The translations under genes and the position numbers were made by a program. From Raillietiella orientalis (taxonomy: Eukaryota), in the NCBI GenBank assembly GCA_036172245.1, contig JAYWIR010000035.1, positions 1,550,001 to 1,614,000 on the forward strand: a stretch of 64,000 nt of DNA, read 5' to 3'. Shown here piece by piece: positions 3,369 through 47,112 of this stretch (position 1 is the stretch's first letter; each line of letters begins with the position of its first letter). The notes under the pieces were generated by a model, which saw only the letters and a program-made list of their open reading frames with translations, made no database searches and was not told where the DNA came from.

Positions 3369-3389
3369 GTGTGTGTGTGTGTGTGTGTG
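3369..3389. repeat. (GT)n microsatellite
   Basis: About 10 perfect GT units read directly. Confidence 0.9.
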
Positions 3390-10764: not shown

Positions 10765-10807
10765 GGGAATCGAGGAAGACCTCGATTCCCTCAAGCAATT
10801 GGCGCAG
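10748..10807. repeat. Perfect 28-bp inverted repeat with 4-nt loop
   Basis: CTGCGCCAATTGCTTGAGGGAATCGAGG-AAGA-CCTCGATTCCCTCAAGCAATTGGCGCAG. Confidence 0.95.
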
Positions 10808-11622: not shown

Positions 11623-12465
11623 TGGCACCCGGTCAGGCGGGAGCGTTTATTTATGAAATAAACATCCATGTCTGTGGCAGGACATTTCATCCTGACACGT
11701 TACTTATAACTACGAGGGGGAACCTGCCGGGAACTGGCATGCAGGCCGGCGGGGTTCGCCTCGGCAGCACAGCGGAAGAGGAGACAAAAAGAAAAACATA
11801 GAACAAAAAAACATACAGTCAAAAATGGGGGATTCGGGAAGAGAGCACTGTGTGCTAGAGAGTGTTCTCTGCATCCTTGTAAGGATTCCCGCAAGTTCTT
11901 GTTTCAATATTGCCAGACGGGGCCATCCTTATGAAGAAGACAGCAAGATAGATCCATCGTCCTGATCGGCATCCCTATCGTCCTGGCCTCCTCTGGCATT
12001 GCTCGACGCAGCCACGATCCCGCCGCGTGGGCAGCAAAGTGCTGCTAAGGATGCGGCCGGTATGAGGGCATCTTGCAGGAAGAGGCTCTTTAAAACGCCT
12101 TTGGCGTTGCCAACGGGGGTTCCTAGGGTCACAGCAAAGCGTCCACGAAGGGGTCGGAGGGCAACACAGTCCATTTGGAGGTGAGGGAGAGATTCCCGCT
12201 CCTTGCACCTTGCACAGTTTGGGTCCACACACACCTATGTCCAATGATGCCGGCGGGCATTGCACGGAAGGTCTCAGTGCAGCAGCATCAATGCCGAATG
12301 CTGCCACTTCAAGGGGAGGGTGCGGGTATTCATGAGCGCCGGGGCCACTGCAGATCTTCCTCCGCAAGACCCAGTAGCACGCCCCAGCGCAAAAGTCCAT
12401 GAGGTCGAGTACTCGGGGTCGCAGCGTCGGTGAGCTGGACCCAGTGCTGGGTGAGCTGGCCGCAG
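11623..12465 (-). mobile_element. 5'-truncated L1/Tx1-like LINE (copy L) in Brachyury intron 1
   Basis: zf-RVT VDPNCARCKERESLPHLQMDC...AALCC, 3'UTR, terminal motif at 11626-11651; 15-bp TSD TGCAAAGTGAG(T/C)GGT at 11608-11622 and 12466-12480. Confidence 0.85.
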
Positions 12466-15400
12466 TGCAAAGTGAGCGGTAAAGGCAGAAGGGTGGCAGA
12501 GTAGATGCCAGGAAGAGGACGGTCGCGAAACGTTTCTCTCGAGTCGGCGACGCCCATCCTTGCTGGCAAGCGCGTTTTCGTGGCTTTCGCCACGAGCTCG
12601 AGAATCTAGAGGGTTGCCCGGTCACTACCGTTCCATTTCCCATGACTTCCAGTCTTGGGGTATGGAATTCGTTCCTCTCCCTCCCCCCCCCCCCCCCCCT
12701 CTTCCTTCCTCTTCGTTTTGTTGCATGTCAGTGCGCTTGAAGGATGTGGCCGACAGATCGAAGCTTCGAATAGAGTAACGGATTTTCATCAGTGAACAAA
12801 AATTTGCTGTTCGAATGCAGAGGCGGGATCAAAGCGCACGATGAAGCGAAGAAGGATGCCCATCCCATCCCGGATGTTCGGAAGGCACTCGTGGGAAAGC
12901 CTGAAGGAGAGCAGCACAGACACAGCTGCTGCATTTCCCACGATAAAGTCTATTCCTCGAAGTTTTGAAGATTCGAATGCAACGGGAAGATTCCCACAGG
13001 GCATCGCCGGAGGAGTCACGAAGACGGTAGCTGCGGGGTCTCCTTGACCTCTCGCAGCCACAGAACACCCTTCCGCGGGCTCTCCCGTTTCAGGTGCAGC
13101 CTTCCGGCTGTTGGCGAATGAGCTGCGCCTAGAGTTGAAGAATTCCTGGTTCACTAGAAATGGACGGATTCGGGCCGGCGCGCCCAAGAAGCTGTCGTCT
13201 GGGAGGAAAGGAAGCAACAGCAAACGTCTCTGAGCTCGATGCTCTTCGGTCGCCGGGAAGGATACGTGGGGTGTCATTTTGAAGGAACATCCATCATCGC
13301 AGCACCACCGGAAGTCGCTGCGTTTTGAAGCATCGGGTTGCTCTGAAAAGGGAAGGGAACGCGCTGCGTCTGCAGCCGTGTTCGAAAAGTGTCCAAATGC
13401 ACCTTTCGATCGCAAACACCGGGGCGCACCGAGAGGAAATCCCGACACGGTTTGAACCAGGCTTGCATGCTCAGGCTACGTATGCGCAGGTGTTGCTCGA
13501 ATTTCCCAGAAACATCGATTTCGTGCAAGGAGGAAAGCGAGGGCGTTCTCTTCCTCGAAGTTCTGTGGGTCTTGAGATTCGGACTCTCGAGGCGCGCGAC
13601 TCCAAGGAAATCCTCCAAGGAATCTCGTGCCTCGACTGAAGAATCGATGGCCAGTCCGGACCGACGATTCCAGAGATTCTTTCACGAACCAAGGCGGGAG
13701 GGGGAACACGGCGAAGTGTTCGGGCCACACGACTGCAGCATCAAACCAACGAATCCTCCAGTAACACCCTTCGGAGGATCAGTGCACGACCCGGGGTCAA
13801 GGACGTTTTCAGGGGTTGAAAAAAATTGAGAGCACAAAGTAGAAGATTCCCTCGAACCGAAACACAGCATCCGGATGTGCGAAGTCCTTTAGTGGAAGAC
13901 GTGGCGAGAACCTGATGAGGCCTTGGCGGAAGCTGGAGAGTCCGAGTTGCCCGTATCTCATCAGGAAGCCACAATCTCTCCACATCCGAGCCGTTCATTC
14001 CCATGATTGAGGGGGGGGAGAGTGCGCGGCTGCTGCATCCTCAGCATCCCTGAGCGAGGCACGCGCGAGTCGGGAATTTCCCGCGACCTCCTTCTCCCCC
14101 TCCTCCTCCCCAGAGGAACTTTTTCTCCAGAGTGCCCAGACGGGTCTCTTGGTGAAGTGGCATCCTATAAAGGTGAGATGCAGATCCACGGGCTCATGCC
14201 AGAAGAGATGGTGGACGTTCTGGAAAAGAGTGGATTCCTGGGTGGGAGTTGTTGTGTAGCCACTCCCGACGAATTTGGCGTCGAGATGCGACCCATTTAT
14301 GACCCTGATGTCTGCTGACTGAGCTGCTTCAAGGAGGTGAACAGAAGGAGCGCTGCAAGGGCATCTAGAGAGATGAGGGATCCTGGAATCGAACTTCTGC
14401 TTCATAGGTTGAAGACATCAGGATAATTTGCATAGCCTCGTGGTGTGTCGCGTGTGATCAGGGAAACCCTGTGAGAAGAAGGCTGCGCTCGCCCCAAAGA
14501 TGGAGAAGCACTGGACATTCAAGACTAGGACGGGGTCCTTTAGATGTGGAGTCCCGTCATTGAAGGGATTATTGGATGAAGCCGGAGATTGGCGGGAACG
14601 CCGCACTCACAGACAGCGGAACGACCTGGGAGTGGACCAGCGTTCTGAAGTGTTGTGTCAGTGGCTGGAGCGACTCCAGCTAGTCCTAAGGTTGTGGATG
14701 GGGAAGCAGAGGTTGTGGTTCAGGAGAGTTGGGAGAATGCTGAGCCGTACAGTCACGGAGATTTCGATTCCTGCTGGAACGACAGCAGCGAACGTCATGG
14801 CATCCGAAGGCAGTAGGCTCGATCTCTAGCCTCAAAACAAAAACGTGGTTTGCTCAGGATTTGCACACTAGCATGGCCGCGGCGATCGGGGGGATGTGTT
14901 TCTGGACGGTGTACAGGTACGTGTACACCGTTACACTTTCTTTATCGAGTGGGACGAGATGCCGAAAACCGGGGCAATTCGAAGGCAATCTTCAGGGTGA
15001 CCGAAGGGTTAGAACGTGCGCCTCGAAGCAAGATCGGACCTTCTCCTGCTGCGGGAGGGTGGGTCGCGGAGACTCGCTTCCTCGAAGTGGCCGTCGAAGG
15101 GAAGCATCGTGACAGCTCGCGCTAGCACAGGGGAGTGTGCCCTGAGATCAACAGAACGGAGGTGACGAGAGTGTACAGTGACAGGAGGAGCGTTCGGGAA
15201 GGGGACGGATGTCCTCATAAGGCGCACACGCTGGAACGGTGCTGGTGATGGCGGAGTGGGTGATCTTTGGAAACGATGAGATTCCGGTAGGCATGGGGAG
15301 GAAAACGTTCAGGGTCAGATCCCGCTGCCGATGCTCATGAAGGCAGCTGTAGACTTCCGCGTCTCTAGAGGGCAGCATGCGAGGCCGGAAAGTCCAGCTT

Positions 15401-18400
15401 CGCATGCTTCCCGGACTCCCTTTCGTCAGGCCAGGTGGAAGAGGGCATGCGCGACCTCATCTGGGCTGCCCACTCATCTGACACTTCTTCATGATGACAC
15501 TCTGAATTTTTCAAAGGCTTCTTGGGCGTCTGGAGCGAAGGTTCATGCGTGATCGAGGAGGAGCGCAGTCGCGAAGGCGGGGGACCGCGAGCGTCTTCTT
15601 CATCACTGCATGGGATCCTGAGATGTGAGTGCGCCCGCGTGTTCTTGTTGAGAAGAGAAAAAAAGGAGCGCCAATTCTCAACGGAAGATTGGCAGGGTGG
15701 GCAAGGAACCAAGAAGACAGTAGCAGCAACAGGCCGGGCGCCTCTGCGGTAGCCGCACGTTACGGATGCGTAGAAGCGTGTGGGACCGCAGCGGTGGCGG
15801 CCCGATCGCACTTACGGGGGGGAGAGCGACGCGGCTGGTTGGTCGGTCGCCTTCGCCACGGCGCTACTTCCTGGGACGGCGGAGCAATTAGGAGGGCAAA
15901 AGGGCGTCGCTACGGCAGCAGGCATGCGGCTGACTTGCGATCCGCCCGTCTCTCTTTCCGTTGGGGAAACGCGGCCGAGCCCAGGGTCTCGAGGGCGCTC
16001 TCCCCGCTTCCCGGACGAGGAAGCAAACGGCATGGGGGTTGCCTTCTATCCTTCCTCTTCCCCCTCTCGAGTTCCCGCGAACCCTCCCTCCCCATTCCTG
16101 AGGATCCCGCGAGACAGGAGCTGCCGTGGGTTGTCAGATCGCAGACGGTGCACCCTCCCTCCTCCTCGCATTCGGAGCGACGTTTGAGTCACCGCTTCCC
16201 TTTCTGGGGCTCCGCGGGGTCGGTCGGCTGTCATTCCGGAGACGCTTGGAGGAGCGCGCTGGATTCTCGTCCGCTAAAGGCGCCCTTTCACACGAAAGAT
16301 CTTCCTCCCTCTGAAAAGGAGGAAGTCTTTTGCGGAGGGAAGGAGGGAAAGGGAGCGGCTAATTCCCGTTTCTCTCGCTCGCCACTGCAGTGAAACTGCA
16401 GAGGGAGGGAGTGGGGGGTGGAAAGCTGCACTGGAAGGGGACCTGTCTTCGTGTAAATCACAGATGCATCAGCGCCAACTGGACGCTGTGATGGGGAGGA
16501 GGCGTCCGATCGTGGCGGTCTAGAAGCCCCGGAGCACGCTGAAGCTCTTCGCGACGGCGCCCATGAGTCAATGTGGCGACTAGCCGGCGAAGTCTCGTTC
16601 CCCCCCCCCCCTCCCTTCCGCTCTTCCTCCTGCCGGTTCCTGCGGAATCGCTCTCCGGCGCGTGAGAGCGATATCCGGGAGATACTACACTTTGCATATC
16701 CGGGAGATGCATCGCTCAGGAAAGACGCTTACGGATGGACGCGAGGTGTTTCAAAGGGAAGGGGGCTGGGTTAAGAGGAAGGGGGTCCTCTCCAAGGATC
16801 CCTGGTCGAAAATATGGAGGCGTATGCGAGGTCGGCCCTCTTTCCAGAGACCGGAAGAGAGTGCTCGCGTCGCCCTCGCACTTCGGAGGGGCGCTGCTCC
16901 CAAGCGGTGCCGTCGAGTCTTCCTAGAAAGGGCCATCGGTCTCCCACCCACACAGACATTTTCCTTGACCCGCCCACTCTCCTCCCGGAAACGGCGAGGG
17001 AGCGGGCGTCTTGGAGGTGGAGCCAGCCGATTTGGCGATGCCTGGAGACGTGCTCAGGACGGTGAGCGTTCCGAGCGCGAAAATTCTCTCTCCGCGGGTG
17101 GACATTGGTGTCACATGCACCCACGGAAGGCCCTATGTTACGTAGGAGTACACTCCCTTGCCCTGAAGGTAGGGGTCCTGTGTTCTCCCCCCCCCCCTAC
17201 TTTTAGTTGAGGATTCCGGCTGGCTAAGAGACTGGTTCTTAGGGGGAAAAAAAAGGACAATTATCGGGGATGCTGGGTACAGGGCGTGAGAGCCCGCGCA
17301 CAATAGGAGCGTATTCCTGACGGATGAATGAGCACGGGATGCGCGTTTCACGTGACCCGCATTGGAGGGTGGCTTTGGAGAAGGAACGGGCAAGAGTGCG
17401 GAATCCTTCAGGTGAGCGGGAGGGGAAGGGAACTTCACCCAAAAGAAGTCCTTTCTTCCCATCCCTTCCCCCGCCCCCTAGATGAGAGGAGTACTGGATG
17501 AGAACTATCGGAAATTCAGAACCTCAGATGAGGACGCCTGAGGAGGTGGATTTGTGACGCTTCCTTCTCGGTAGAGAGCGACCTCTCTCCGCTCCCCACT
17601 CAGCTGCATCCTCCCATGGAAAGGGGAAATGGTAGATCTCGAGAGGGAGGGGGGAGGTCCTTGCTTTTGACCAGACGCAGCTTACCACGGATCATAGGGA
17701 GCGGGGCACGCCAGAGCTGGTGGCGGTACACTCGACTGTGAGCTCCTCAACTGTTAAATGCAGATCTTCGTGTACAAGGGATGGCGGCCATCTTGGAAGA
17801 TTCTCTTTTGGTGGATTTCAGTGGTTCGCCCTCGATGCTGAGGATGATGGGAGCGGATTCCCAACGAGCGTTCCCCCCTCTGGATGCGCGTCCGCGAGGA
17901 GCGGAGGAAAGGGAAAGAGGGACAGCAGAGAGCATCCAAGAAACCTTGAAAATCTTCGCAAAGGTTCCGTACGTGGGACGGTCAGAGAGCTCGCAGAACG
18001 CTGAAGATTCCACATTCTGCGAACATCCGACGGTGCAACGCGCGCACCTCAGTTGCCGCCTACCTGCTACTGAGTGTGCCTGCAGCAGCATATTGGCTCT
18101 GTCCTCGAAGCCACTGAACACACGAGCTGTTGGTCAACTGAGCACTCTGCAGAAACGAGGGTACAACTCGTGGGTTTTAGTAGAGAACCTATTGGAGCCC
18201 ACACGCACGGAAAGAAGAAGCAAACGCTCTCAAGGAAGGCATAAGGATAAAAGGAGGAATCTGTCCCCTAAATGCAAGTGCCTTGCAGCTGCACACGCTC
18301 CTCTTCAAGGAGAACCGTCTTCCACATGCAACGGATTCCTGCTAGACATCCAGGTCATCTTGCTGTCGCACGGCCATGGAATCGGCAGGCGAATTTCGGC

Positions 18401-19115
18401 AGCAGGAATTCGAGGTTGAGTGATGGTTTATTATCCTCTGGAGTGCTGGAGGAGAGAGACTTGATGCGACAGTGGATCGAGAGAGGGGTGGAGTCTGGGT
18501 GAATCCAATCTCAGGAAGAGGAGATTTGCGTGCAGCAGCTTGATCCCGAAATTCCCTTGCTCATTCGCGAGAATTTCACTCAGCACCTGGACACGGCTTG
18601 ATTTGCCTCCCCCTTGAAATCCACACCGCTACCCTGGATGGATTCTCACATTCACACACAGAGACTGCGTGGCAATGAGCTGAAGATCCAAAGACCACAT
18701 CAGGTGCTCCGCCTGATGAGCTGCTTTCGAGCCTATCCTAAGATCATCCGCACTCGAAGCTGCTTTCTTATAGTACGTGATCGCAATGTGAAGGGAAGCG
18801 TGAGAGCATCGTTTGAAAAGAACGGACGCATCTTGCCGCTTGCACGACCAAAAGATCCAAAAACGCGCGAAACGGTCGCCAAAGGGACGGACGAATGAGT
18901 TCCTCTGGCATCTGCTTCGAAAAGGCCGGAGATGCTCGCGCCTGAAGCGATCCGGGTGATACACCACACTCGAAACAGCTGTGTCTTCATGAATCGCATG
19001 GTTTTCAAAGATCGCGTGCGGCTCCCTTTCGTTTCGCCATTCCCACTACTTGCACCCCCTTCCGCTGTTTGAATCTCGAGCGATTGCAAGAAGTAATTTC
19101 TCTTCCTAACTCCAG

Positions 19116-19211
19116 GAGAATGTTTCCGGTGATCAGGATCTCAGTCAAGGGTCTGGATTCGTCGATCATGTACTCGGTGGTCTTGGAGGTCGTTCAGATA
19201 GATCAGCACCG
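19116..19211 (+). CDS. Bra: Brachyury-family T-box, exon 2
   Basis: Acceptor TCCAG|; RMFPVIRISVKGLDSSIMYSVVLEVVQIDQHR; donor GTGAG; phases match exons 1 and 3. Confidence 0.92.
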
Positions 19212-19274
19212 GTGAGCAAGATCGGACAGCAGCAGAGAACTGTCCTCACCTGCAACTGTCCTTTCTCTTTCCAG

Positions 19275-19443
19275 CTGGAAGTTCATCAACGGGGAGTGGG
19301 TGATAGGAGGAAAAGCAGAACTGCCGCCTGCTTTCACCACATACGTCCACCCGGAAGCTCCCAATTTCGGATCTCATTGGATGAAAGACTTTGTGCGTTT
19401 TGACAAAATAAAGCTGACCAACAAGCCCGGGATCAAAGGACAG
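19275..19443 (+). CDS. Bra: Brachyury-family T-box, exon 3
   Basis: WKFINGEWVIGGKAE...YVHPEAPNFGSHWMKDFVRFDKIKLTNKPGIKGQ; AG/GT boundaries. Confidence 0.95.
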
Positions 19444-19629
19444 GTGCAATCCGCTTCCAATCCGACTCTCCAGACCTCCTTCTTCCCCGACTATCGCGGC
19501 TTCGTTTCCCAGCTTTGCTTTTTCCATTTCCAGTTTTTCAAAGAATTTTTTCGGTGGACGCATGCGCCCCCCTCTCCTCCCCTCCTCTCTCCCCCTCCCC
19601 AACTAACTTGCTCTGCTACTGCGTTTCAG

Positions 19630-19764
19630 ATCACGCTCAACTCTCTGCACAAATACGAACCAAGAGTGCACGTTTTCCGCATCGGTGCCGAGTCCGAGTG
19701 CGTCAAAACGTGCGCGCTCCCTGCCACGCAGTTTATCGCCGTGACAGCGTACCAAAACGAAGAA
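19630..19764 (+). CDS. Bra: Brachyury-family T-box, exon 4
   Basis: TTTCAG|ITLNSLHKYEPRVH...TQFIAVTAYQNEE|GTAAGT. LNSLHKYEPR is typical of the Brachyury subfamily. Confidence 0.95.
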
Positions 19765-22470: not shown

Positions 22471-22727
22471 ATTACCACACTGAAAATAAACTACAATCCC
22501 TTCGCGAAAGGATTCAAAGAGGGTAAAGACAAACAAATGCAGAGTTTGGTACCTGTTCCGCTCATCAGCAGCTGGCAAAGGATGCAGAACAAGTCCAAGT
22601 CCCACGAAACTTCGAATTATCTCTCCGAGAATCAGTGGGATCAAAACAGTATCTTTAAATCATTTACGCCCATAAGGAACAAACGCTACAGGTTCCCGAA
22701 GCAAGAATATGATCTTCAAACAAGTGG
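22471..22727 (+). CDS. Bra: Brachyury-family T-box, exon 5 (end of T-box)
   Basis: TGTAG|ITTLKINYNPFAKGFKE, frame stays open; donor at 22728 (GTGACC) inferred, otherwise stop at 22729-22731. Confidence 0.85.
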
Positions 22728-22980
22728 GTGACCCTTTTTATTACTTCATTTGTTGGGGATTGTACCTTCAGAGGGCATTTCATTCAAAACCTGTGCGCAG
22801 GCTGAAAATAGGGGGTGGGGGGCTGGCAGCCGATAGGTTTTCATTATTCTAACTCGGAATCTATGCATATTTTCGATCCTCATCCCTTCAGGAAAAGAAC
22901 TTGAGGATCTCTAGAGTTTCTATAAAGAACTCGTGATTTTCGATAATGACCTCGAGGACCGTATACTTTCTTGTTAACAG

Positions 22981-23383
22981 CAACCCGCTTGTTGGCCTCT
23001 TTTCAGGAGTCCCTTCGCACAACCCTGATAGCCTTCCGGAAAACTTCAACTGCCTGTCAAATATCCAAACTATAGTGCCTTTCCATAATATGGACAGCAA
23101 TTGTGTTTTCCCTTGCCAATACTCGCAATACGGGATCCATCGCGGAAACTTCGAAGACTCCTCAAACACTCACTCGGTTTCTTGCGCTTCAAATTATCAC
23201 CAACCTCGTTTTCCCGTACCACGGTATCCGGAAAAGGACCATAGCAAAGATAACTGGACACACCAAGAGGACTTATGTGAGAAGCATAAATATTTCGACA
23301 CAGGTTTTCCTGTACAAACAGCTTCCTGCGTATCTATAGGCGATTTACGTCGGTCCATATTTTGTGCTTCCATGTCACCATGA
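22981..23383 (+). CDS. Bra: Brachyury-family gene, putative last exon (S/P/N-rich tail)
   Basis: Acceptor CTTGTTAACAG|; phase 2 matches the 22728 donor; joined CDS is 1341 nt (446 aa). No conserved motif confirms this exon. Confidence 0.55.
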
Positions 23384-33717: not shown

Positions 33718-35004
33718 CACCCGGATACGCCGGGACCTTTATTCAAACTCTTTCTGATGTCATAACAATACGTGATACAAGGCCCCACTAACGGCCAACA
33801 TTTCGCCGGACCTGCCGAGACGCCGGGACGCAGACCAGCGTGACTCCTTGGCAGTGGAAGGGGAAGGGGGAAAAAACAAAAAGAAAAATAAAACCAATAA
33901 AATAAAAAAAAGAGTTTGGAGGGCCGGGAAGGGATCACTGACCACTGGTAGGAGGGTCCATGCTTTGCAGTATTCCCTCGAAGTCCTTCTTTAGTCCACC
34001 CAGCTGCGGCCATTCGGTAGATCTCTGCAGGAAGCGAGCAGCATACGGGATGACGTCCCTTTCGTTGACATCTTCATCTTCGGCTTCACTCCAGGCCGCC
34101 ACAATCCCACGGATGCAGCAAAGTGCTGCCAGGGTTGCGGCTGGCTGCAGGGCTTCCCGCACGAAGAGAAGGCGGTAAACGTCTCTGGGGTTGCCGCCAA
34201 CCGGAATCCCAAGGGTCGTTCCGAAAAGTTCTCACAGGGTCCGGGAGGCAGGACAGTCAACTATCAGGTGGGGGAAGGACTCCCGCTCTCAGCACCTGGC
34301 ATACTCAGGGTTTACTCTTCCCCGCGTCCAGTGGAAGCAGCGCGCGTTGCAGGGTAGACCCCTATGCAACAACAGGAGCGCCGACTCTTGCAACTTGAGG
34401 GGGAGGATATTGGAACCATTCAGTACCGGGGGTCACTTCAGGTCATCCGTCGGGATGCCGAGCATCTCGCCCATCGCAAAAGTCACACTCGGGGTCGTGG
34501 CATCTGACAGCTCTCACATGATCCAACCGCTCATCTTCTCTCTGCCCGCGATCCGACGGTAGACTTGCCACTTCGGTGTGCGGCCGCTGACGAGGGCCCT
34601 CCATAGGAAGGGCAGAGCCGTAGCGAAAGGGGTGGTCTCCTCCCATGTGCTCTTTGCGGGACACTCCACAATGGTCCTCAGGGTGCAGCGGGCGTAGGTC
34701 CCGAATCTCACGCAGTTCCAGCTGTCACTTCAGGAGAATGGCATTTAACTTCGCCCACGTTCTAACAGATTCCTCCAGCCATGCGGAGTTGGCGGGGCTG
34801 CATACCATCCAGCCATTCTCCTTGGCAATTGTAGCCATGCGTCAAAGGAGGAGGCCGCATCCTCTGATCTTCCGGCCGGGGCACAGAAGTTGAGACGCGA
34901 GTCCTTGAGTCCTGGAGACGGGCCGGAACGCACCAAGGGGCGCTCCACAACTTCGCTGCGATGGCAATGGTGCGCCATTGCAGCTGGATTTCCAAGCGCT
35001 CTCC
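33718..35004 (-). mobile_element. 5'-truncated L1/Tx1-like LINE (copy A)
   Basis: QLQW..LWSAPWCVPARL, ESFPHLIVDC, AALCCIRGIVAAW, 3'UTR and terminal motif at 33718-33743. Confidence 0.88.
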
Positions 35005-35620
35005 CGACTCTTCCGGAGAAATTCTCCCGGCTTTTTCTTCCGGATGGCGCACCGGCGATCGGAGAGGAAGAGAGAGCCCGCCTGGACGAGTCTTTCACGA
35101 TCGGTGAAATTATCACCGCAATCGGGAAGTTCAAGAGGCGGAAGGCACCGGGAGAGGACGACCTGCCCGCGGAATTCTTTTAATGCTTCGTGGCGGAGCT
35201 GACTCCCCTGGTGCAGCGCTTAACGCTGTTGATTCGGGAGACAGACGATGTTCCCGCCTCCTTCCGATCGGCACGGATGCGTCTCCTCACGAAGGGAAGG
35301 GAATTGCGAAACCTCAGCAACTGGCGTCCCATCACCGTGTTGAACGTGGACGCCAAGTTGCCGGCGAAATTGTGGTCGGAGCGACCAGGGCGGGTGGCGG
35401 AAAGCTTCATCAGCCCGTAGCAGACTTACGCTGTTCCTGGGCGGAGCATGTACGCCAACCGGCTCTTCACGAACACCTGGTTTCAGTTTCAGCGGGGTAG
35501 AACAAACGAAGGGAACACGGTCGGCACTCCGATTTCCGGGACATCCGCTGATGGTTCGCGGGACGGTCGGGAGCACGTGGGGGTCTTCGCGGTCGCACTC
35601 GACTTGCGCAAAGCATTCGA

Positions 35621-37626
35621 TTTTCACCCGGATTTCGCCGGGTCGTTCATTTAAAAATAAACTTTAACAGATATGTCAGTTGCTGCAGCAATGCTCCAGC
35701 CACGCACGAAGAACCACGGAGCCTGCCGGGTCACCGGTTCGCAGACCGATACGGTCCACCAAGGCAGCAGGGGGAAGGGGGGAAAACAAAAAACTAAACA
35801 AAAAGAACAAAAAGAGTGGGAGGGTACGGGAAGGGATATCACTGTTGCTGCTGGGGCCGTAGCATCCTTCGCAGGATGCCGGCAAGCTCTTTCTGCATTC
35901 CTGGATCCAGGTGGGGTCACCGCGACGCCCTCCTCAAAAATTCAAAGGCGTGCTGGATGGCACCCTTATCGCGAGGTCCTCCCGTAGCCTTACTCCAAGC
36001 GGCGACGGTCCCGCGTAGGCAGCACAGGGCTGCTATCGAGGCCGCAGGCCGAAGGGCGTCGGCAACGAAGAGGGCTTTCAATGCGTCCCTGGGGTTGCCG
36101 CAGGGGATTCCGATGGCCGCGGCAAAGCGGAACCAAAGGGGCCGAAGGGCAACACAATCCACTAGTAGGTGGGGGAGGGACTCCCGTTCCCCACGCCTAA
36201 CACAATTGGGGTTCACCGTTCCCCAGGTCCAGTGGTGTCGGCGGGCGTTGCAGGGGAGTCCCCAGTGCTGCAACAGTAGAGCCGACTCCTGCCATTTTAA
36301 GGGGAGGGTGGAAGTGTTCATGAGCACCGGGGGCCACTTCAGATGTTCAATGGGAACATCGAGCAGCGCGCCCCAGCGCAGAAGTCCATTGGGAGGCGTA
36401 CTCGGGGTTGCAGCGTCTGTTAGCTGGCCCGTCTTCCACTCTCCTATCTTCTTCTCCTTCCCGGAGATAGTTACTCTAACCTCTCACTTCGCCGCAACAT
36501 CGCTGTCCTGATCTTCCATTAGGGAGGCCAGCGCAGCAGCGAGGGAGGTTCTTCCTGACCACGCTCGCTTCTTCGGATCCTCCAGGATCTCTCGGAGCGT
36601 GCAACTTCTGTAGCACCCAAACAGGAACCGTCGTTCCTGTTGGGCGTGTTGCATGCCGCACTGTGCCCACGTGCGAACGGTTTCCTGCAACCAGGCACTA
36701 CCGTTCGCGGGGCGACAGGTGATCCATCCGTGGTTTCCCCGAACCAAGGCAGCTACCCTCCGCAGCTGGAGCTCACATCGGTTGATGCGGGAGCGATGGA
36801 GTGAAAGAAAGGACGTGAGTCCCATCTTCCCAATGGCTTTCTTGACGAGGAGACGTGCAGGGACGCACCAGCAGGTGCACCACAACTCCGGCACAAGTGC
36901 CAACATCCGAAACTGGAGCTGTCGCTCCAGCCGCTCCAACGTCAGGATGCCTAGACCGCCATCCCGACGCGGAGCGCACAAGTCCTTCAAGCTGACTCGG
37001 GCCCTCCCGTTGCCCCAAAGGGCGATACAGAGGAGGCCCTTCGTCCGCTTTTTTATTCTCTCTATGGGGGGGGGCAAACAAAAAGCAGGGAACGAAGGAG
37101 AGGAACCGCGAACGTGTTCCAAACCGCGGCCCGTTCCGGCAGGAAAAACCTGCCGCCTCGGAAGGGGCCGATCGCCGTCTCTACTTTTTGGAGGCAGCCG
37201 GACCACGCTTCCGCAGGGGAATAGTCCCCCAACGGCACACCAAGGTACTTGAAGTACCTCACCGTGGGGATCCCCAAACGGACCCATTCCTGCTGCCCTG
37301 CCCACGCCACACCAACTGGCATTACGGACGACTTCGCCCTGTTCACCGTAAGTCCGGTTCCCCGACTCAGCAGGTCGAAGAACTCCTCGACCGCCGAAGC
37401 CGGGGTGGACATAGGGAGCAGCAGCAGAAGGTCGTCCACGTACGCTGAAACCGCCGGCGTACCGGCGCAGTCGTGCGGCAGGTGCTTTAGAGGATCCCTG
37501 TACGCTCTCAGTACCAACTCGAAGTAGGTACTGAAGAGCAAGGGACTCAGGCTGTCTCCTTGACGTATCCCACGCCGCACCGGCACGCCGTGCACGGTCT
37601 GCCCGCTGAAAGAAACGTTGATGAGC
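35621..37626 (-). mobile_element. 5'-truncated L1/Tx1-like LINE (copy B) nested antisense in H
   Basis: GIRQGDSLSPLLF, AYVDDL, YLGVPL, zf-RVT; perfect 15-bp TSD GCGCAAAGCATTCGA at 35606-35620 and 37627-37641; A4 tail. Confidence 0.92.
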
Positions 37627-37900
37627 GCGCAAAGCATTCGACTGATTCGACCAGGAGCTTCTTCTGGAGCTTCTGGAACGCTTGGGATTCCCGGCCTCTT
37701 TAATAGCCTTTCTGCGCTCTTGCTGGCGCGACGCGCTGTTTAACATTTCTTTCAGAGGAAGAAATGTGTTCGGTGTGCTGGTGCGCCGCAGGATACGGCA
37801 GGGCAACAGTCTGAGCCCTTTGCTCTTCAGCACCTACTTTGAGCAAGTGCTGAGGGCGTACAGGGAGACTCTAGCTTGCCTGCCGCGCGTGTGCGCAGGT

Positions 37901-38128
37901 TTTTCACCCGGATATGCTGGGACATTTATTGTTAAAATTTTATAATAAAGTCTTAAGTTTTTTCAGGTAGAACACGTGGTTTTGCCTGTCTTGGAACACT
38001 TGCTTTTACCGGCTACCAGACCGGTGAGATTCTCTTCGCTGGTGAAGGGGGCGGGAGAACCACACACAAAAAAAAAAAAAACACGAGAGGGCAATGTTTT
38101 ATGGGGAGGGGGCAGGAGGGTTCCCAAG
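37901..38128 (-). mobile_element. 3'UTR-only LINE fragment (copy D)
   Basis: Terminal motif at 37905-37930 with a short A tail; UTR similar to the adjacent copy C. Confidence 0.75.
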
Positions 38129-39650
38129 TTTTTCACCCGGGTGAGCCGGAGCTTTTATTATTAAAATTTTTTACATCAAAAAAAAATTCCATAATAAAGT
38201 CTTTTTTTGTTAACACTATTTTTCTTTTTCGGTCAGCACAAAAGTTTTGACTGTTTTGGGGCACTTGTCCTTACCGACCCTTAGGCCGATAAGGTCCTCC
38301 ACACTGGCGCAGGGTCAGGAAAAACCAAAAAAAAAAAGAAAAAGAAAAACGCCTGGGGGGGGGAGCAATGTTTTTGGGGAGGGGAGGAAAGGGAGGGGAT
38401 CACGGTACGCCGTGAGGAGGCCTCTGCATCCGGTTTCGCATGCGAACAAGTGCCGACAAATGTTTTTTAAGTCGGCGCCAACGGGAAGCCTTCTCCAAAG
38501 AGATGGCTGCCCAGTGGATGGCATTCCGACTGGTGCGGCACCTCCTTGACGCGGTCCACTTGTCCAGGATTCCGCGTAAGCAACAGAGCACTACTACACA
38601 CCCGGAGGCTGGCATGGCGTCCCGCACCAGGAGGCGTCTAAAAATGTTCTTGGGGTCGCCCACCGGAATGTTCAGGATCGACGAGAGTCGATCCCACATC
38701 TGACGGAGGGCAACACACCCGATGATTAAGTGGGGAAAGGTCTCCCTTTCCCCGCACTCTGCGCAATTGGCATCCACACTCCCCGGTGTCCAGTGAGACA
38801 GGCGTGCTCTGCTTAAAAGTGGAGCAGAAGTGGCCCAATGGAGCAGAAGCAACGCCATCTCCTGCCACTGCAGGGGAAGGGTGCCGTTGTCCCAAGACGC
38901 TGGGGCCACTTCACCTCCTCCGGAGGCATGTCGAGCAACTCGCCCCCGCGTACAAGTCCATTCGGCGGGACACTCAGGGTAGTAGCGTCCGCTAGTTCCC
39001 GGGACGTCCACGCCTTCATCAGTTTTTTCCTGCCCTTGATGAAGCAGGACACTTCATAAGAAGCCTCCTCTTGGCTGTCCCTGGCTTCTATGAGGGAGGG
39101 CAGCACGGGGGCAAGGGGGGTGAATGAAGCCCACAAAAGCTTTTGTGGGCTGAAAAGAATTTCCCACAGGGGCTGGCCAGCGTTCCGGCCTCGACGAAGG
39201 CAGAAGTCCACCTCGCTGGAGCCGTTGATTTTTGCCCACGCGGAAACAAAACAGACTCCTGTAGCCAGGTAGTCAAGTCCGCGGGGATGCAGGAGATCCA
39301 CGGATTGTCCCTCACCAGGGCAACCAGATCCCGTAGCTGAAACCCACAATGGTTCAGACTACAGTCGTTGGCTGCTAGGATTGAGGTCAATCCGTAGCAG
39401 CCGGTTGCCCTGTGGGCGAGGATTCGTGCGGGCGCACACCATGGTGCTGTCCAGCTCTTTGCCACAAGGGCAAGTTTTCTGAATTGGAGCTGTCGCTCCA
39501 TGCGCTCCAACGTCAGGAGACCAAGTCCACCGTCCCTGCGTGGAGCTCACAAGTCTTTAAGCCGGACGCGGGACCTCTGGTTGCCCCAGAGGGCTTTCCT
39601 TATGAGGCTCCTTGTCCGTGTTCTAATTTGGGAAGGGACGGGGCACACAG
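38129..39650 (-). mobile_element. 5'-truncated L1/Tx1-like LINE (copy C) nested antisense in H
   Basis: LERMERQLQFR, WTAPWCAPAR, NCAECGERETFPHLI; terminal motif at 38134-38159; the C+D unit is bounded by GTGC(G/C)CAGGT at 37891-37900 and 39653-39662. Confidence 0.85.
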
Positions 39651-41286
39651 GGGTGCCCAGGTACACCAGCCGTGTCGGCATATGCGCACGATCTTCTGCT
39701 GCTGCTTCCATGTCCACCCCGGCGTCGGCGATCGAAAATTTTTTGTGCTGCTACGCCGCGGGACAGGACTGGAGGTGAACAGGGCGAAGTCGTCCGTGGT
39801 AGCAGTTGGTTCGACATGAGCAGGGCAGCAGGACTGGTTCCGCTTGAAGATCCCCATAATGCGGTATTTTAATTACCTCGGTGTGCCGTTGGGGGACTAC
39901 TCTCCGGCGGAGGCGTGGTCCAGCTGTCACCAGAAGGCTGAGAAGGCGATCGGCTCATTCCTGGATGGTAAGTTTTTCTTGCCGGAACGGGCCACGGTGT
40001 GGAACACGTTCGTGGCCCCCCTTTTTCTCTCCTTGCTTTTTGTTTGCTCCCCACCCCGTGGTGTAAAGAGGCGGACCAAGGGCCTCCTGAGGATTGTCCT
40101 TTGGGGCAGAGGGAGGCCCCGAGTCCACCTGAAGGACTTGTGCTCTCCGCGTCGTGACGGAAGCCTCAGCCTCCTGACTCTGGAGCAACTCGAGCTGCAG
40201 CCTCAGTTGAGAACGCTTGCCCTTGTGACGACGTGTGGAGCACCAGCTGGTGCGAGTCTGCACGACACCTGGTCCAGTGAGCCAGAGACTGCGATTGATT
40301 GTCTACCTTCCTAGAGCGTCGCAAACACCAGTACCTGTTCCACTGCGGACTGGATTTTTGACGAGTGGCCAAGCTGACCAGGACGAACACCTGGATCTCC
40401 AGCCAGCCCGCAAACGGCAATGCCTGGCTGCAGGAAAGCTTTCCCAATTGGACCCTGAACGAAGAAGCGAGCTCGGAGTTGCGCCAGTGACTGCTGCACT
40501 CCTTTTAAGATTGCCGCTCGCTGCAGGACGTCACCGTGCAGCCTGCCTCTTGTGCGTGGGCTGAGGACCTCCCCAGTCGCGACTCTTCCCTACTTCAGGG
40601 AGCAACGGGGACAGCCGGACAAATAGGAGGTCCGATTTGTGATAGGTCGTCGGACGAAGAAATTAGGTGGTTGTACCACAAGTCAGCCAAGTGACGCTGC
40701 GACTCCAAGTGCCCCACCGAAAGGACTGTTGCGCTGGACGAGCTGCTGATCATCCCGTTGGAAGTACTCGGGTGGCCCCCAGTGCTGAAGAATACCCGGG
40801 CCCTCCCTTAAAGTGGCAGGAGTCGATGTTTCTGGTGTTCCACTGGGAACTTCCCAGCAATGTCTGCTGATCTCACTGGGCGAGGGGGGCAGTGGACACG
40901 AACTGCGTCAGGTGCGGGGTACGGGAATCCCTCCCGCACCTACTTATTGACTGTGTTGCCCTCCGGCCCCTTTGGGAACGTTTCGGTACGACCTTAGGGA
41001 TCCTGGGAGGCTGCCCTCCCAGAGACGTTTTTCGGCTCCTCTTCGTGCGGGACGCCCTGAAGCCAGCCGCAGCCGTAGCAGCACGTTGCTGCATCCGTGG
41101 TATTGTGGCGGCCTGGAGTGAAGCCGTTTTTTCCCCCTTCCCCTTCCACTGCCGAGAAGAGTCACACTGGTCTGCTTCCCGGCGTCCCGGCAGGTCCTGG
41201 GAAATGTTGGCCGTTAGTGGGACCTTGTACCACGTAATGTATTGACGATTGAAAAGTTTTAATAAACGTCCCGGCGTACCCGGGTG

Positions 41287-44200
41287 GCATCGCCGTATAC
41301 ATGGACAAACCCGAACTCACCGATGACCTCGTGGAGATCAACGGCAGGCTCCTTCCCGCGGCCACGACGTTATACTTGTCAGGTCTGCATCCGATGACGG
41401 AAGGGGACACACTAGCCCGCCTCAACGAGACTGGCTACCACGAAGACACCTTCGGCGGGGAAGCCATCCTCAAGATTCGGATGACGAAAGGAGCACAAAT
41501 TCCGACCCTCGTCCGAATCGACGAACATTCGCACCACGTACGCGTGGCATACCGGGAGCAGCCCGACTTTTTCCGCACCTGCATGATCTTCGGACACAGG
41601 ACGGCGGCCTGCCCCGACAGAAGGGGGTGCCCGCGCGTCACACCGAGAAACTGGAGTTTTTCGAGAGACTGCGCGACCGCTGGCTCAGCAACTCCGGCCC
41701 CGATGTGGCTCACCTCGTAGCCAGGGACTTCAACGTCCACGCGCTATCGGAGGAGTCTCACCGTCGCCGGGAGAAACGGCTGGTGAACGAGGTGTGCGCG
41801 TCCGTGCACGCCTCGAATTTGCTGGCCGACGATCCCGGGATGCGTGCTTTGCCGGACCATGTGTTCCTCGACGATCACCTGCATTGTCGGGTGGGTCGAA
41901 GAGGTCCCGTGCCGTCCGAGCTTTCCGACCACTACAGGCTGGATTTTGAGCTACTCCCGCCTGGCAAGGGCTCTCCGACGCACGTCTGGAGGTTGCCGGC
42001 CGACTGGTTGAGAAATCCGGTGGCTGCGGAGCACCTCCGCCAGCATCTCCGGACCTTGGCCGTTCGAGAGCTCGTGGACTGGGACGATCTGAAAAGATCG
42101 GTCCGCGAGTTCTGCAGCCGATTCCCCTTGCGCCTGCTTCCCCGTGGCTTCGGGGAAGGCGTGGCCAACAGCAGAGAGTTTCTGCAGGCTCGCCAATTCT
42201 CCCGATGCCCGGACGTCCGGTACCTTGCGGAGTAAAAGGCCAAGGCCGAGCGCCAGGTCTGGCAGTCAGGAGCGGCTTGTCTGCTCGACGACCAGGGCCT
42301 AGAGTGCTCGGGCGCGGCCGAAGTTCGCCGCCTCCTAAAGCGCTACTACTCCTCGTTGTATGCTAGGGAGCCGACGGAACGCAGTCTCTCGGAGCTGCTT
42401 CTGCCGGCGGATTCCCCGGCGGTCGACGAGGAGGAACGCTCCACTCTTGACTTGCCCTTCACGGCGGAAGAAGTGTCTTCCGCCATAGCGGGCCTCAAGA
42501 AGCGCAAGGCTCCAGGTGAGGATGGTCTGCCTGCGGAGTTCTTCCAGTGCTTCGCGGCGGAACTCATCCCCCTGGTGCTGAGGCTTTCTGCGCTGATGCG
42601 AGAGACGGGCAATGTCCCGGCCTCGTTTCGCTCAGCAAGGGTGCGTCTCTTGCCGAAAGGCGGAGACATGCGCCATTTAAGCAACTGGCGTCCCATCACC
42701 TTGGTGAATGCGGACGTCAAGTTGTTCTCCAGGCTCTGGGTCGCGCGCCTAGGCAGGATCGCTGGATCCGTGGTAAGTCCGGAGCAGTCTTACGCTGTTC
42801 CCGGGCGGTCCATGGAGGCGAACCTGTTCTTCGCGCGCAAGTGGCTCGAGCTGCAACGTTGCGTGGCGCACGACAGCCAGGCAACCGCATCTGCGGCTGC
42901 CCAGGCTAGGCGTCGCTGCATTCGGCCTGGGGAAGCGCCGGGTGCCTTGGCGGTCGCGGTCGATCTCCGCAAGGCGTTCGACTGCGTAAATCAGGATCTC
43001 CTGCTGGAGCTTCTGGAACGCCTCGGTCTCCCGGTGCACCTCGTGGCCTATTTGCGCGCTTGCTGGCGCCACGCGCTCATTTCCACCTCTTTTAGCGGCT
43101 GCCAAGAGTACGGCGTGCCGGTGCGGCGGGGCATCAGGCAGGGCGACAGCTTAAGCCCGTTGCTCTTCAGCATCTTCTTTGAGTTGGTGCTGAGGGAGTA
43201 CAGGCTGACGCTGGCCAACCTGCCGAGCTTTTGTCCAGGAACGCCGTCCGTGGCGGCCTATGCTGACGACCTGCTTCTTCTTTTACCCATGACCACCCCG
43301 GCGTCCAGTCTCGAGGATTTCTTCGAGCTGATTCGCCGGGGAGCGGGCATGAGCGTAAACAGGAGCAAGAGCGTGGTCGTACCTATTGGTGCGGCGTGGG
43401 AGGGGCAGTCCGACTGGATCCGCCTGGGGATCCCGACCGCTTCGTCCACCCAATATCTGGGCGTTCCGCTGGGGAACATCAGCCCAGTGGAAGTGTGGTC
43501 GGACTGCCTTCGGAAGGCTACGAGTGCGCTGAGCCCGTTCCAGCATGGCAGGTTCCTCCTGTAGGAGCGGGCCGCGATATGAAACACCTTCGTGGCCCCC
43601 CTCTTGCGCCCCCTGCTTTTTGTTTGCCCGCCTCCCTACTCGGCGAAGCTCCAGGCGCACAGCCTGTTGAGGAACGCTCTGTGGGGTCCTGCGAGGTCCA
43701 GGATCCGCCTGAAAGACTTGGCGGCTCCGCGTCGGGATGCTGGCTTAGGCATCCTGACGCTGAAGAGAATCGAGCTGCAGGTGCAGCTTCGGATGTTGGC
43801 CCTGTGCGCTAACCTTTGGTCCACTCCGTGGTGCGCTCCTGCGCGCTTGCTCCTGCGGCGCTGCACCGGCAGCGACGGACTTCTGTCGCTGCGTCCGCAT
43901 ACGGAGCGCCCCACGACAAGTTTCGGTTTCCCTTTCAAACCCCTCTACCGGCTCCTGGCAGCCCAGGAATGGATCTCCTGCCGCCCAACGAACTTTCAAG
44001 CCTGGCGGCAGGAACCGTTGCATGGCTGGGCAAAGCACCAGGATGTTTCCCTCCTGGAACTCCGTTGCGTTCACCTCTCCCCGTACTGCACGGTGGATGA
44101 GGTCTGCAGCAGCCAGGAGAAGTGGACCCGCCTGGCCCTCACCCCCCTCGCCGACGCACTGTCAGCCCTCAGGGCAAGAGATGACAGCTGCGAACCGGCG

Positions 44201-45701
44201 AGATGGGAGGTCGCCTGCACCATTGCAGGAACAACACGACCTATTAGCGGCTGGAGGACTTGCGAGCTGGCAGACGCCGCCACGCCTCGCCACATCTCGA
44301 AGGGACTCCTTCGGTGGAGTGAATACTTGAGTGTGCCCCCCGAAGAACTTGTGGTCCCTCCCTCCTGTTTGAACACTTCTGTGTTCCCCCTTTCGTGGAA
44401 GCAGGACGTCATCATGCTGGTGCATTGGGGTTTTCACTCCAACCAGCGGACGAACCGTGTTTCCGGGGGAGTTGTCTCCCCAAACTGTAAGCGGTGCGGG
44501 GAAGTGGAAACGCTCCCGCACCTGCTCCTGGACTGCGGTGCCCTTCTAGGACTTTGGCGGAGGCTGGTCTCAGCTCTCCTGCACCAGGGGACACCGCGAG
44601 GGACTTGATGCGCCGCTTCTTCACGCCAGGCGGCCTGTCTTTGGGTGCTGTCGTTGCAACCGTGTGTTGCACCCGCGCCATCGACAAGGCCCACCGAGAG
44701 TTGGAGAAGCTGGCCATCGTTCGTCAGCCCACCGGATTAGCCAGCGCAAGCATGTCGTCGGCTGCCGAGTGGGCCCATCTGCCACAGGACGTAAGGAGAG
44801 AGATCGCCGGCATCCATCGCCGGTTTTGAAAGGAAGGAACGGACTCACCAAAGACCCCTGTCCCCTGCCCACCACATTTTTATTTTTATTTTTTATAGTA
44901 GTGTATTTGTGATCCCCTCCCTCCCGTTCCGGACTTTCGCCATACCGACCTGCGTGTCGGGGATCCCACCCCCTTCGTATCTTGTTTTCCCCTTTGTCCA
45001 GGAACTCTGTTCCCGGATAGTTTCTAATAAACGCCCCGGCGCACCCGGGTGGTAAACAGAAGGGGGTGCAGGCACTGCGACAAACCCGGGCATGCCAACT
45101 CCGAGCGCGAGCGCCCCAAGCGATGCTACTTTTGCAAAGCTGGGGGATACAGAGAAGAAGGACTGCTAGCCTTCCAAGAAGGAAAGCGGCGGAAGGACAA
45201 CTCTGCCATCTCATTGGAAGAGATGTCCGCTCCTCCCCCAACGGCGAAGAGCCCCGCAAAGAGCGGGAGGCCGCCGGCGTAGGAAAGGAAAAATGTGGGT
45301 CGGGAGGAGCCTCCTGCTAAGGCAACCTCCGCCGCCACACCTCCCGCGAAGGAAACTGGGCAGGAGGCAGCGATAAGCGAAATGCAGGCAAAGATCGACG
45401 ATCTGCGCTCTACAATTAGAGAGATCGCTAATGAGAAGCAGAAAGGCTAGGCATTCCAGCAATCCAAAGACCTGCTGGAACACCTGAGGCAAGAAGCCAT
45501 TCCGTCTCAGATGGTCTTGCACCTGGAAGATCAGGTGTACGTCAGCCTCACTCCCCTCGTCCTTCCGGAAGAGGAACGCAAGCAGGGGGAGGGAAAACCA
45601 CCGGCAGAAAACCTAAACAGCGCCGAGATGATCGAAGCCCTGGAAGCAGAGGAGAACGCGGCCAGCTGCCACACCTCGGAAGAGGATACTCCTGATGCTG
45701 T
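41287..45701 (+). mobile_element. L1/Tx1-type ORF1 (gag-like, zinc knuckles; copy G), split into 41287-41630 and 45070-45701
   Basis: IPTLVRI...RVAYREQP.FRTCMIFGHRTAACPDRRGC | RHCDKPGH...RCYFCKAGG; three CCHC-like knuckles become contiguous once copy F is removed. Confidence 0.8.
41631..45055 (+). mobile_element. Near-complete ORF2 of L1/Tx1-like LINE (copy F): APE endonuclease, RT, zf-RVT; pseudogenised
   Basis: EN motifs DFN and LSDH; RT KAPGEDGLPAEFF, NWRPITLVNAD, DLRKAFD, GIRQGDSLSP, AYADDL; CKRCGEVETLPHLL; in-frame stops (e.g. 43562); perfect 14-bp TSD ACAGAAGGGGGTGC at 41617-41630 and 45056-45069. Confidence 0.93.
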
Positions 45702-45993
45702 CACCCGGTCACACCGGGGCGTTTATCATAAACTGACAACAGTTGCAGTATAAGGCCCCGCTGCGGCCAATAAAATAAGGGACCTGCCGGGTCGTCGGTG
45801 CTCAGACCGACTTGACTCTCCACGACAGCGGAGGGGGATGGGGAAAAAACAAAAAGAAAAGTTAAACAAAATTAAAAAAAAAGAATAGTTCTCTGGAGGG
45901 TCGGGAAGGGATCACTGTCCGCTTGGTGGAGGTTCCATCCTTTGTAGGATGCCGACGAGGTGCTTCTTCCTGTTTCCCAGGTGGGGCCATCGG
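45702..45993 (-). mobile_element. Short 5'-truncated LINE 3' end (copy J, related to A)
   Basis: WPHLGNRKKHLVGILQRMEPPPSGQ* matches copy A WPQLGGLKKDFEGILQSMDPPTSGQ*; UTR and terminal motif at 45702-45727. Confidence 0.82.
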
Positions 45994-46595
45994 TGTATAC
46001 GGCGAAACCCCCGACGAACGGAACGATGGCCTTGATCCACGTGAAGTCTATCTTGCAATGGATCGCCAAGTAGATGTCACGGATTGCGTTGTTGGTGAGT
46101 CGGCCCATGAGGAAACTGACGGAGGTCACTTCCAAGCCGAACCTTCTCAGGGGTCCTGAACCCTTTGTGATTTCTTTTCAGACGATAACGCCGTTCCCTG
46201 CGGACGACGCGGGCTTTGCGGTTGGGACGGATGCGGCCACTCTCCCGTACGACAGCGCTGTGGGTGCCTGACTGCTTTCGCAGCTGCCGAAACGTCGTCG
46301 CTGTTTCCGTGGATGGTCCAGCTTCCACCTCCATCCTGGACATCTTCTCCTTCCTCTTCCCAGAAGGGCCTCGGTGTTGGGTTGCTCCACTTGGAATTGA
46401 AGACTCCATCTTCCACCACACTGATCACTCACTCACTTTCACTGTTCGCTTGCCCACTTGGGGCACACAAAAATTGCCGCGGCAGCGGTATTTCACGCTG
46501 CCTTGGCGGGGTATTGGGTAAAGTTTTCAACTAGCAATAATCGCGCTTCGTTTCCAATCCTCGGCTACGATATTGCTCGTGCGCAAGGCTGTTTC
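45994..46595 (-). mobile_element. LINE 5' region and ORF1 N-terminal half (G')
   Basis: SYGRVAA...IKAIVPFVGGFAVY ends at the residues where copy G begins (GIAVY). The 5' boundary is approximate. Confidence 0.55.
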
Positions 46596-46617
46596 TTATT
46601 GTAACAGAAAAGGAGGT

Positions 46618-47112
46618 TTGTCACCCGGATTTGACGGGGCATTTCTTTGAAAATAAAAGTACATGGAAATGTTTCTGTGGTGAACCCCTTGGATCACCAC
46701 GTCACGGCAACTTTCAGTCACCGGTTGGGACACCGGCGAGGTCCGTTTCCGAAGCGAGTGGGGCGGGAAAAACACAAACAAAAAGAAACAAGTGGAACAA
46801 GGGTGAGGGAGGTGTTCTGGATGGAGGGAGGGCAGGGAAGGGATAACTCCTCGCTGGGAGACGTCATCTATATCCTCTTCAGAATATCTGCAAGTTGCGT
46901 CCTCACACTATCCAAGTGAGATCATCAGGATGTGATCTTTCAAAAAAAGACGTCCAATGGACAGCATCCCTGCCATTCTGGCCTATTCTGGATGCGTTCC
47001 AGGCCGCCACGATTCCGCGAATGCAGCAGAGAACTGCCAGGGCAGCGACCGGGGACACAGCGGCACGCATAAAGAGGGGCTTAAAAATTTCCTGGGGCTG
47101 CCTTCGGGGATG
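46618..47112 (-). mobile_element. Short 5'-truncated LINE (copy K)
   Basis: LAVLCCIRGIVAAW, UTR, terminal motif at 46622-46648; 9-bp TSD AAAGGAGGT at 46609-46617 and 47113-47121. Confidence 0.8.

Follow-up and report, generated by a model that had tools for sequence, protein, structure and literature searches.

Conserved 3' ends with a putative terminal hairpin and almost no poly(A) in a diverged L1-group retrotransposon family of Raillietiella orientalis

Nine old, decayed copies of a diverged L1-group retrotransposon family in the genome of Raillietiella orientalis end in the same short block, which can fold into a terminal hairpin and is followed by next to no poly(A). They lie within a stretch of 64,000 nucleotides (assembly GCA_036172245.1, contig JAYWIR010000035.1, positions 1,550,001 to 1,614,000 of the forward strand), referred to here as the window, whose own numbering is used throughout. 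Template choice by L1-type elements is usually regarded as the model of the 'relaxed' kind, which depends on poly(A). The features described below make it fairly probable that this family relied on recognition of the 'stringent' type, in which a structured 3' module of the element RNA would be recognized and reverse transcription would start just past the terminal hairpin.

A terminal motif shared by nine copies

The original prediction listed nine terminal sites on both strands, and pattern searches of the window confirm every position and strand (Table 1). The strict pattern AATAAA-N2-6-CCCG-N4-10-CGGGTG has four matches against 0.00 expected from 100 shuffles, and a relaxed version of it selects only the nine sites in the whole window. 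The heptamer CCGGGTG by itself occurs 21 times against 6.3 expected, and the remaining 12 occurrences have neither the hairpin nor an AATAAA-type hexamer around them. Such a hexamer stands 20–22 nt before GTG in all nine copies, taking the variant forms AATGAA, GATAAA and AAGAAA in three of them.

As the sites had been picked through CCGGGTG, ascertainment was checked with three nhmmer profiles covering the whole 3' untranslated region (3'UTR), its last 45 columns and an upstream stem-loop region. Each profile returns the same nine copies, with E values from 1e-6 to 1e-40. The heptamer was claimed to be invariant, and all nine copies recovered by the motif-independent 3'UTR profile do carry it; the whole-3'UTR profile finds no significant further copy without CCGGGTG in the window. 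The region 61008–61118(−), with T-rich and C-rich tracts, the sequence AATAAACGTCC and no hairpin, reaches a non-significant E value of 0.48 and may be a decayed tenth copy of the 3'UTR.

Conservation and RNA structure of the 3'UTR

Read in the sense of the element, the 3'UTR passes from poly-T and poly-C tracts through a stem-loop, termed hp1, and a freely varying spacer to the AATAAA-type hexamer, the CCCGG-N5-6-CCGGG hairpin and UG-NNA. Mean pairwise identity among the nine copies is 77% over the block from AATAAA to GTG, 29% in the spacer upstream of it and 30% in the 30 nt beyond the end. Within the hairpin, the 3' arm CCGGGTG is 100% identical, the 5' arm 79% and the loop 44%, in agreement with the earlier description of a largely conserved stem and a free loop. 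Diverged copies thus keep a conserved 3' end (block 77%, 3' arm 100%, spacer 29%), as stringent LINEs (long interspersed elements) do. The five pairs proposed for the terminal hairpin can form in 42 of 45 cells (93%), with mismatches in the other three.

The stem-loop hp1, missed by the original prediction and detected by nhmmer and RNAalifold, lies about 100–130 nt before the end of the element. Its inner helix is 88.7% paired. The compensated stem-loop expected of a stringent LINE is found here, where both sides have changed in five of seven inner pairs, and not in the terminal hairpin, where this holds for none of five. The covariation score of the hp1 helix pair overall was reached by 4 of 500 shuffles, and controls slid along the alignment pair in 24–43% of cells; since these controls rest on nine related sequences, they are indicative rather than proof.

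Target-site duplications and tails

Four ends are fixed by target-site duplications (TSDs) of 8–15 bp, and just 3–5 nt separate GTG from the TSD. The exact 11-mer core of the e11626 duplication was reached in 1 of 2000 shuffles, and a match as long as the e46622 duplication in 54 of 2000. The poly(A) tail of a relaxed-type L1 is therefore missing from all four well-supported TSD-defined ends, which carry tails of 3–5 nt. The original prediction gave tails of 0–5 nt; AAAA, CCA and ACAA are now fixed by TSDs (3–5 nt, four copies), whereas the tail GTAA at 45051 and the lack of any tail at 33718 and 41286 were not confirmed in this way.

Homology among the nine copies ceases at GTG plus 3 nt. The A at the third of these positions, which the original prediction did not mention, is invariant in the nine-copy alignment (CCA, GCA, AAA, AAA, AAA, GCA, GTA, ACA and ACA), so the encoded terminus is probably CCGGGTG-NNA and the truly extra tail 0–2 nt. 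The five TSDs are unrelated in sequence and the insertions lie in other LINE copies as well as in host DNA, which shows that the family has no target specificity. The fifth is the candidate TSD of copy G, a 10-nt direct repeat matched in length by 7 of 5000 shuffles; if this repeat is the TSD, the first nucleotide of G lies 8 nt upstream of a possible start codon of ORF2 at 41322.

Identity of the elements

The longest copy, G, contains an ORF2 frame at 41327–44611 with 1095 codons and three internal stops. Its translation matches RVT_1 with an E value of 3e-23 (83 bits against a cut-off of 29.6), and the solved structure nearest to the reverse transcriptase (RT) of the window is human L1 ORF2p (1e-35), with R2 at 1e-17. 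After the RT, the translation of G contains a C-terminal CX2CX7HX4C motif. C302, C305, H313 and C318 are conserved in an alignment with zf-RVT-bearing proteins, and jackhmmer matches the CCHC regions of these proteins; Pfam zf-RVT itself scores 0.0074–0.027, under its cut-off, with 0.0074 in copy C. A PDB sequence search with the C-terminal 341 amino acids gave no relevant match to any solved chain.

The endonuclease region is decayed. A weak signal for an APE endonuclease comes from a tblastn match, beginning at about 41567, to the APE part of protein P0059 (residues 96–299; E 0.001), and DFN- and SDH-like motifs can be read by eye, with no Pfam match to an APE endonuclease in this region even at an E value of 5. 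The relatives in databases are remote, with 64% identity in one metagenome protein and at most 34% in all others. The Protein Atlas yielded only generic RVT_1 clusters, and no Rfam family matches the 3'UTRs.

A quick maximum-likelihood tree of 52 rows, hand-chosen from 162 matches and labelled by Pfam architecture or source name rather than by curated clade references, places the window RT in a group of 36 rows with 99% SH-aLRT support. This group holds all 21 zf-RVT proteins, among them three plant proteins (plant L1), and the tree sets the window RT apart from 16 rows of the Exo_endo_phos_2/RNase H type. The grouping with zf-RVT proteins assigns the elements to the L1 group. Judged by their sequences, the elements are one diverged family of L1-group, probably APE-type retrotransposons without long terminal repeats. 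The L1/Tx1-like identity first proposed is accordingly upheld at the level of the L1 group by the RVT_1 domain, the match to human L1 ORF2p, the CCHC motif and the tree. The RT phylogeny, suggested as a check, confirms the association with proteins of the zf-RVT and plant-L1 type and, having no named references, leaves L1 and Tx1 together.

Recognition of the 3' end

The proposed mechanism has three steps. The RNA 3' end would form about 23–25 nt after the hexamer, just beyond the hairpin. The structured 3' module would then be bound by ORF2p, as it is in stringent LINEs, and target-primed reverse transcription (TPRT) would begin no more than a few nucleotides beyond the hairpin, with almost no poly(A) being copied. 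The distance of poly(A) sites from their hexamers is well established, and a hexamer 20–22 nt before GTG makes it plausible that a poly(A) site immediately follows the hairpin. The sequences show where the copies end, which parts of them are conserved and that they belong to the L1 group; the binding by ORF2p and the start of the cDNA are putative, and the anchor could be either the terminal hairpin or hp1. Of the original interpretation, the L1-group identity, the conservation of the motif and the short tails of four copies are supported; recognition of the hairpin by ORF2p is its putative part, the terminal stem having no compensatory change.

Several observations weigh against this mechanism. 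The evidence consists of nine old, decayed copies within one 64-kb window. In the terminal stem, none of the five pairs has changed on both sides and all five measures equal those of shuffle controls; a sequence motif therefore fits as well as a structure, and a terminal hairpin is compatible with the data rather than demonstrated by them. The conservation pattern also departs from that of ZfL2, an element of another clade (L2), whose loop gives specificity and whose tail is a short tandem repeat (PMC4176376): in the window elements the loop is the least conserved part, the invariant one being the 3' arm. In copy G, 27 non-A nucleotides possibly separate the hairpin from the TSD, in which case initiation would not necessarily be close to the hairpin. 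For the copy at 45702, a TSD search gave a negative result. Old copies could have lost their A tails, a possibility that the intact flanking TSDs argue against where large losses are concerned. Finally, the 7 nt after GTG are the same in copies D and E, which has no certain explanation.

These 7 nt, GCATCGC, directly follow both D (33711–33717) and E (41287–41293), whose 3' ends face outward. They could be a 7-nt subfamily tail. Alternatively, the tail may be GCA, and the flanks of D and E would be the halves of a palindromic GCGA|TCGC target cut in the middle. With GCA taken as the tail, the outer flanks of D and E join to an 8-bp palindrome, GCGATCGC. This arrangement suggests that D and E are two opposite insertions at a single blunt break.

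In an unlikely alternative, the terminal block serves 3'-end processing alone, as a poly(A) signal with a structured cleavage site where read-through is stopped. Recognition by the RT would then fall to something else, such as hp1 or poly(A), and the tails would be short through priming at the start of the poly(A) or through later shrinkage. At poly(A) sites, cleavage usually occurs after CA. The NCA found directly after GTG in most of the nine copies fits this preference, and the position of the hexamer 20–22 nt before GTG in 9/9 copies and the absence of covariation in the terminal stem are equally in keeping with a processing signal. Poly(A) sites, however, do not normally need an invariant 7-mer, and here it is CCGGGTG that is 100% conserved and the hexamer that varies in three of nine copies. 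Tails of merely 3–5 nt in four copies with intact TSDs also speak against it.

We rate as quite improbable a second alternative, in which hp1 is the real ORF2p site, CCGGGTG-NNA acts as a single-stranded, sequence-specific start, and the hairpin potential is incidental to the palindrome. It draws on the restriction of compensatory changes to hp1 and on the asymmetry of the terminal arms, the 3' arm being invariant and the 5' arm 79% identical with mismatches in 3/45 cells. If the 3' arm alone mattered, one would not expect the 5' arm to reach 79% identity where the loop has 44%, nor pairing to be kept in 42/45 cells. That the motif is an artefact of chance or ascertainment in GC-rich sequence, for which one might cite the discovery of the sites by eye through CCGGGTG in a region of 55–63% G+C, is effectively ruled out by the shuffles (zero strict matches expected, four seen), by motif-independent profiles that find the same nine copies and no others, and by the end of homology among the copies at the motif.

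Stringent-type recognition of a structured 3' module also has a narrower form, which we consider doubtful: that an animal L1-type RT has dispensed with poly(A), anchors on the terminal hairpin itself and starts its cDNA 3–5 nt past it. If this were true, affinity for hairpin-bearing RNA ends would explain both the composite insertion, in which the end at 38134 is followed by that at 37905, and the head-to-head pair with ends at 33718 and 41286. Both composites could have arisen by template jumping or by double priming onto a second element RNA.

Comparison with known systems

Stringent exceptions among L1 elements are on record from a green alga and from plants. In Chlamydomonas and in monocots, L1-clade LINEs have a conserved 3' end and a stem-loop with compensatory changes, and these elements keep poly(A) repeats (Ohshima 2012, PMC3472496). 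Stringent recognition could be the ancestral state for the green-plant L1 clade, as the same study proposes. The original prediction thus overstated its novelty, since the stringent L1-clade elements LINE1-1_ZM and L1-1_CR were already known (PMC3472496). Like LINE1-1_ZM of maize and sorghum and L1-1_CR, the window elements combine an L1-group ORF2 with a short conserved 3' block and a compensated stem-loop, here hp1. Unlike them, going by descriptions rather than by an alignment of sequences, they have an animal host, tails of 3–5 nt and a second, invariant hairpin at the end.

The C-terminal segment of human L1 ORF2p grips the stem of a hairpin, the stem-loop may set the start of TPRT, and about 15 nt of single-stranded poly(A) lead from the stem to the active site (Thawani et al. 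2023, PMC10830416). The window elements resemble this enzyme on its Alu-type template in having an L1-type RT, nearest to human L1 ORF2p at 1e-35, and a hairpin near the cDNA start; in contrast to the span of about 15 nt, only UG plus 3–5 nt follow their stem. UnaL2, ZfL2-1 and ZfL2-2 share with them a conserved stem-loop near the 3' end, proposed as the RT recognition site, and a very short tail; they belong to the L2 clade, and in the tree the window RT groups away from proteins of the Exo_endo_phos_2 type. Vertebrate L1 3'UTRs contain poly-T and poly-C tracts, a terminal AATAAA and a poly-A tail (Boissinot and Sookdeo 2016, PMC5381506); the tracts and the AATAAA recur in the window elements, and the poly-A tail does not. 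With the Tx1 clade (PMC3747384) they share the L1-group ORF2 architecture, and between one copy and a U4 gene downstream of it lie a 9-bp TSD and 18 nt. Tx1 elements are target-specific, whereas the five TSD-defined target sites of the window have no sequence in common.

The family therefore differs from known cases in host kingdom, in the absence of a poly(A) tail, in its two-hairpin layout and in the invariant 3' arm, while the principle is already known. Among the titles and abstracts of the literature searched, with most subscription papers outside its coverage, none describes an L1-group LINE of an animal that ends in a hairpin and lacks poly(A). Within the window, blastn revealed no SINE (short interspersed element) partner, the short copies being truncated LINE 3'UTRs and not SINEs.

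The nine copies and their surroundings

The true 3' end of a decayed, 5'-truncated copy lies at each of the nine sites. The copies represent at least eight insertion events and are summarized in Table 1. Every copy is 5'-truncated, and the longest starts near the start of ORF2. Outside the motif the copies are 65–77% identical to one another, with the exception of the D/E pair, whose 3'UTRs are 87.6% identical, including the 7 nt beyond GTG. Two minus-strand insertions, e35625 and the composite of C and B, split copy E into three pieces; these are collinear in ORF2 and can be aligned to G across both junctions.

The composite occupies 37900–39653(−). The end of copy C reads CCGGGTGAAAAA and abuts B, a 229-nt 3'UTR fragment of another subfamily. 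B has its own terminal motif, and a single 8-bp TSD flanks B and C together. C may already have lain inside the 3'UTR of B at the source locus; alternatively, the RT jumped from one RNA to the 3' end of another.

Table 1. Element copies in the window, with their terminal motifs, tails, TSDs, hp1 stem-loops and matches to ORF2
Copy	Extent (strand)	Terminal motif	Tail	TSD	hp1 (strand)	ORF2 residues (tblastn)	Remarks
e11626	11623..12465 (−)	11626–11651	CCA, 11623–11625	15 bp, 1 mismatch; 11608–11622 / 12466–12480	11719–11775 (−)	979–1093	ORF2 C-terminus and 3'UTR
D	33718..35001 (−)	33718–33743			33808–33862 (−)	813–1072	5' end approximate; head-to-head with E
e35625	35621..37626 (−)	35625–35652	AAAA, 35621–35624	15 bp, GCGCAAAGCATTCGA; 35606–35620 / 37627–37641	35718–35774 (−)	583–1091	Within copy E
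B (e37905)	37900..38128 (−)	37905–37930	AAAAA, 37900–37904	Composite: 8 bp, 1 mismatch, TGCGCAGG/TGCCCAGG; 37892–37899 / 39654–39661	37993–38051 (−)		3'UTR fragment, 229 nt; nhmmer
C (e38134)	38129..39653 (−)	38134–38159		Shared with B	38258–38314 (−)	766–1084	5' half of composite; motif followed by AAAAA, then fragment B
E	35022..41286 (+)	41261–41286			41141..41197 (+), 7-bp inner helix	354–552, 548–644, 636–1084	Pieces 35022–35620, 37627–37899, 39654–41286
G	41314..45078 (+)	45026–45051		Candidate: 10 nt, GACAAACCCG; 41304–41313 / 45079–45088	44919–44969 (+)		Longest copy; outer limits rest on candidate TSD
e45702	45702..45992 (−)	45702–45727			45779–45836 (−)		3'UTR fragment; 5' end approximate; blastn to D and e35625 3'UTRs, nhmmer
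e46622	46618..47112 (−)	46622–46648	ACAA, 46618–46621	9 bp, ACCTCCTTT; 46609–46617 / 47113–47121	46706–46762 (−)		Fragment; blastn to E

The target into which copy D inserted is an older and different LINE RT fragment, F, at 32736–33710(−), with about 25% protein identity to G. A search for a continuation of F past copies E and G found no RT motif upstream in the joined frame and is uninformative.

A complete U4 snRNA lies at 46452–46590(−) (Rfam RF00015, 85.8 bits, model positions 1–138 of 138). Fragment e46622 sits just upstream of it, with the 3' copy of its TSD ending 18 nt before the U4 start. The insertion separates the U4 gene from its former upstream sequence; it is an isolated case and does not indicate target specificity. 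Elsewhere in the window, a Brachyury-type T-box exon at 19219–19893 is 53–69% identical to Brachyury-type proteins of many animals and marks the host as an animal, and an amidase exon lies at 48938–49420. The block 2000–19000 has 53–65% G+C and long open frames on both strands; nine frames tested gave no Pfam match, and only the LINE fragment at 11623–12465 was recognized in it.

Searches for relatives

A protein-pattern scan of metagenome contigs produced 51 pattern matches, none of which was confirmed. The hp1 pattern gave at least 120 matches in metagenome contigs and the terminal pattern at least 120 in prokaryote genome contigs, and both patterns are too unspecific. The three nhmmer profiles and tblastn identified no relative in the 240 loci from these two scans, among the matches listed. 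Two loci in that set, L137 and L194, with terminal-profile E values of 4.5e-4 and 8.6e-4, were rejected as contigs of bacterial metagenome-assembled genomes without 3'UTR or ORF2 similarity. One DNA sequencing run, sharing 0.12 of words with the window, was listed and no RNA run; 627 of the contigs of the DNA run aligned at 80% likeness, 446 of them under 90% alike. Six of its 529 loose contig ends are listed, all within the A/T-rich low-complexity tract of the 3'UTR, and they are uninformative on element ends.

Significance

The value of these elements is comparative: the general principle is known, and a single window with nine decayed copies supplies the evidence. An animal lineage of the L1 group that combines two conserved 3' structures with a virtual absence of poly(A) would provide a data point on whether stringency is ancestral in the L1 group. 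Set beside human L1 ORF2p, it would also be a natural counterpart in which to ask how the distance from hairpin to active site sets the start of reverse transcription.

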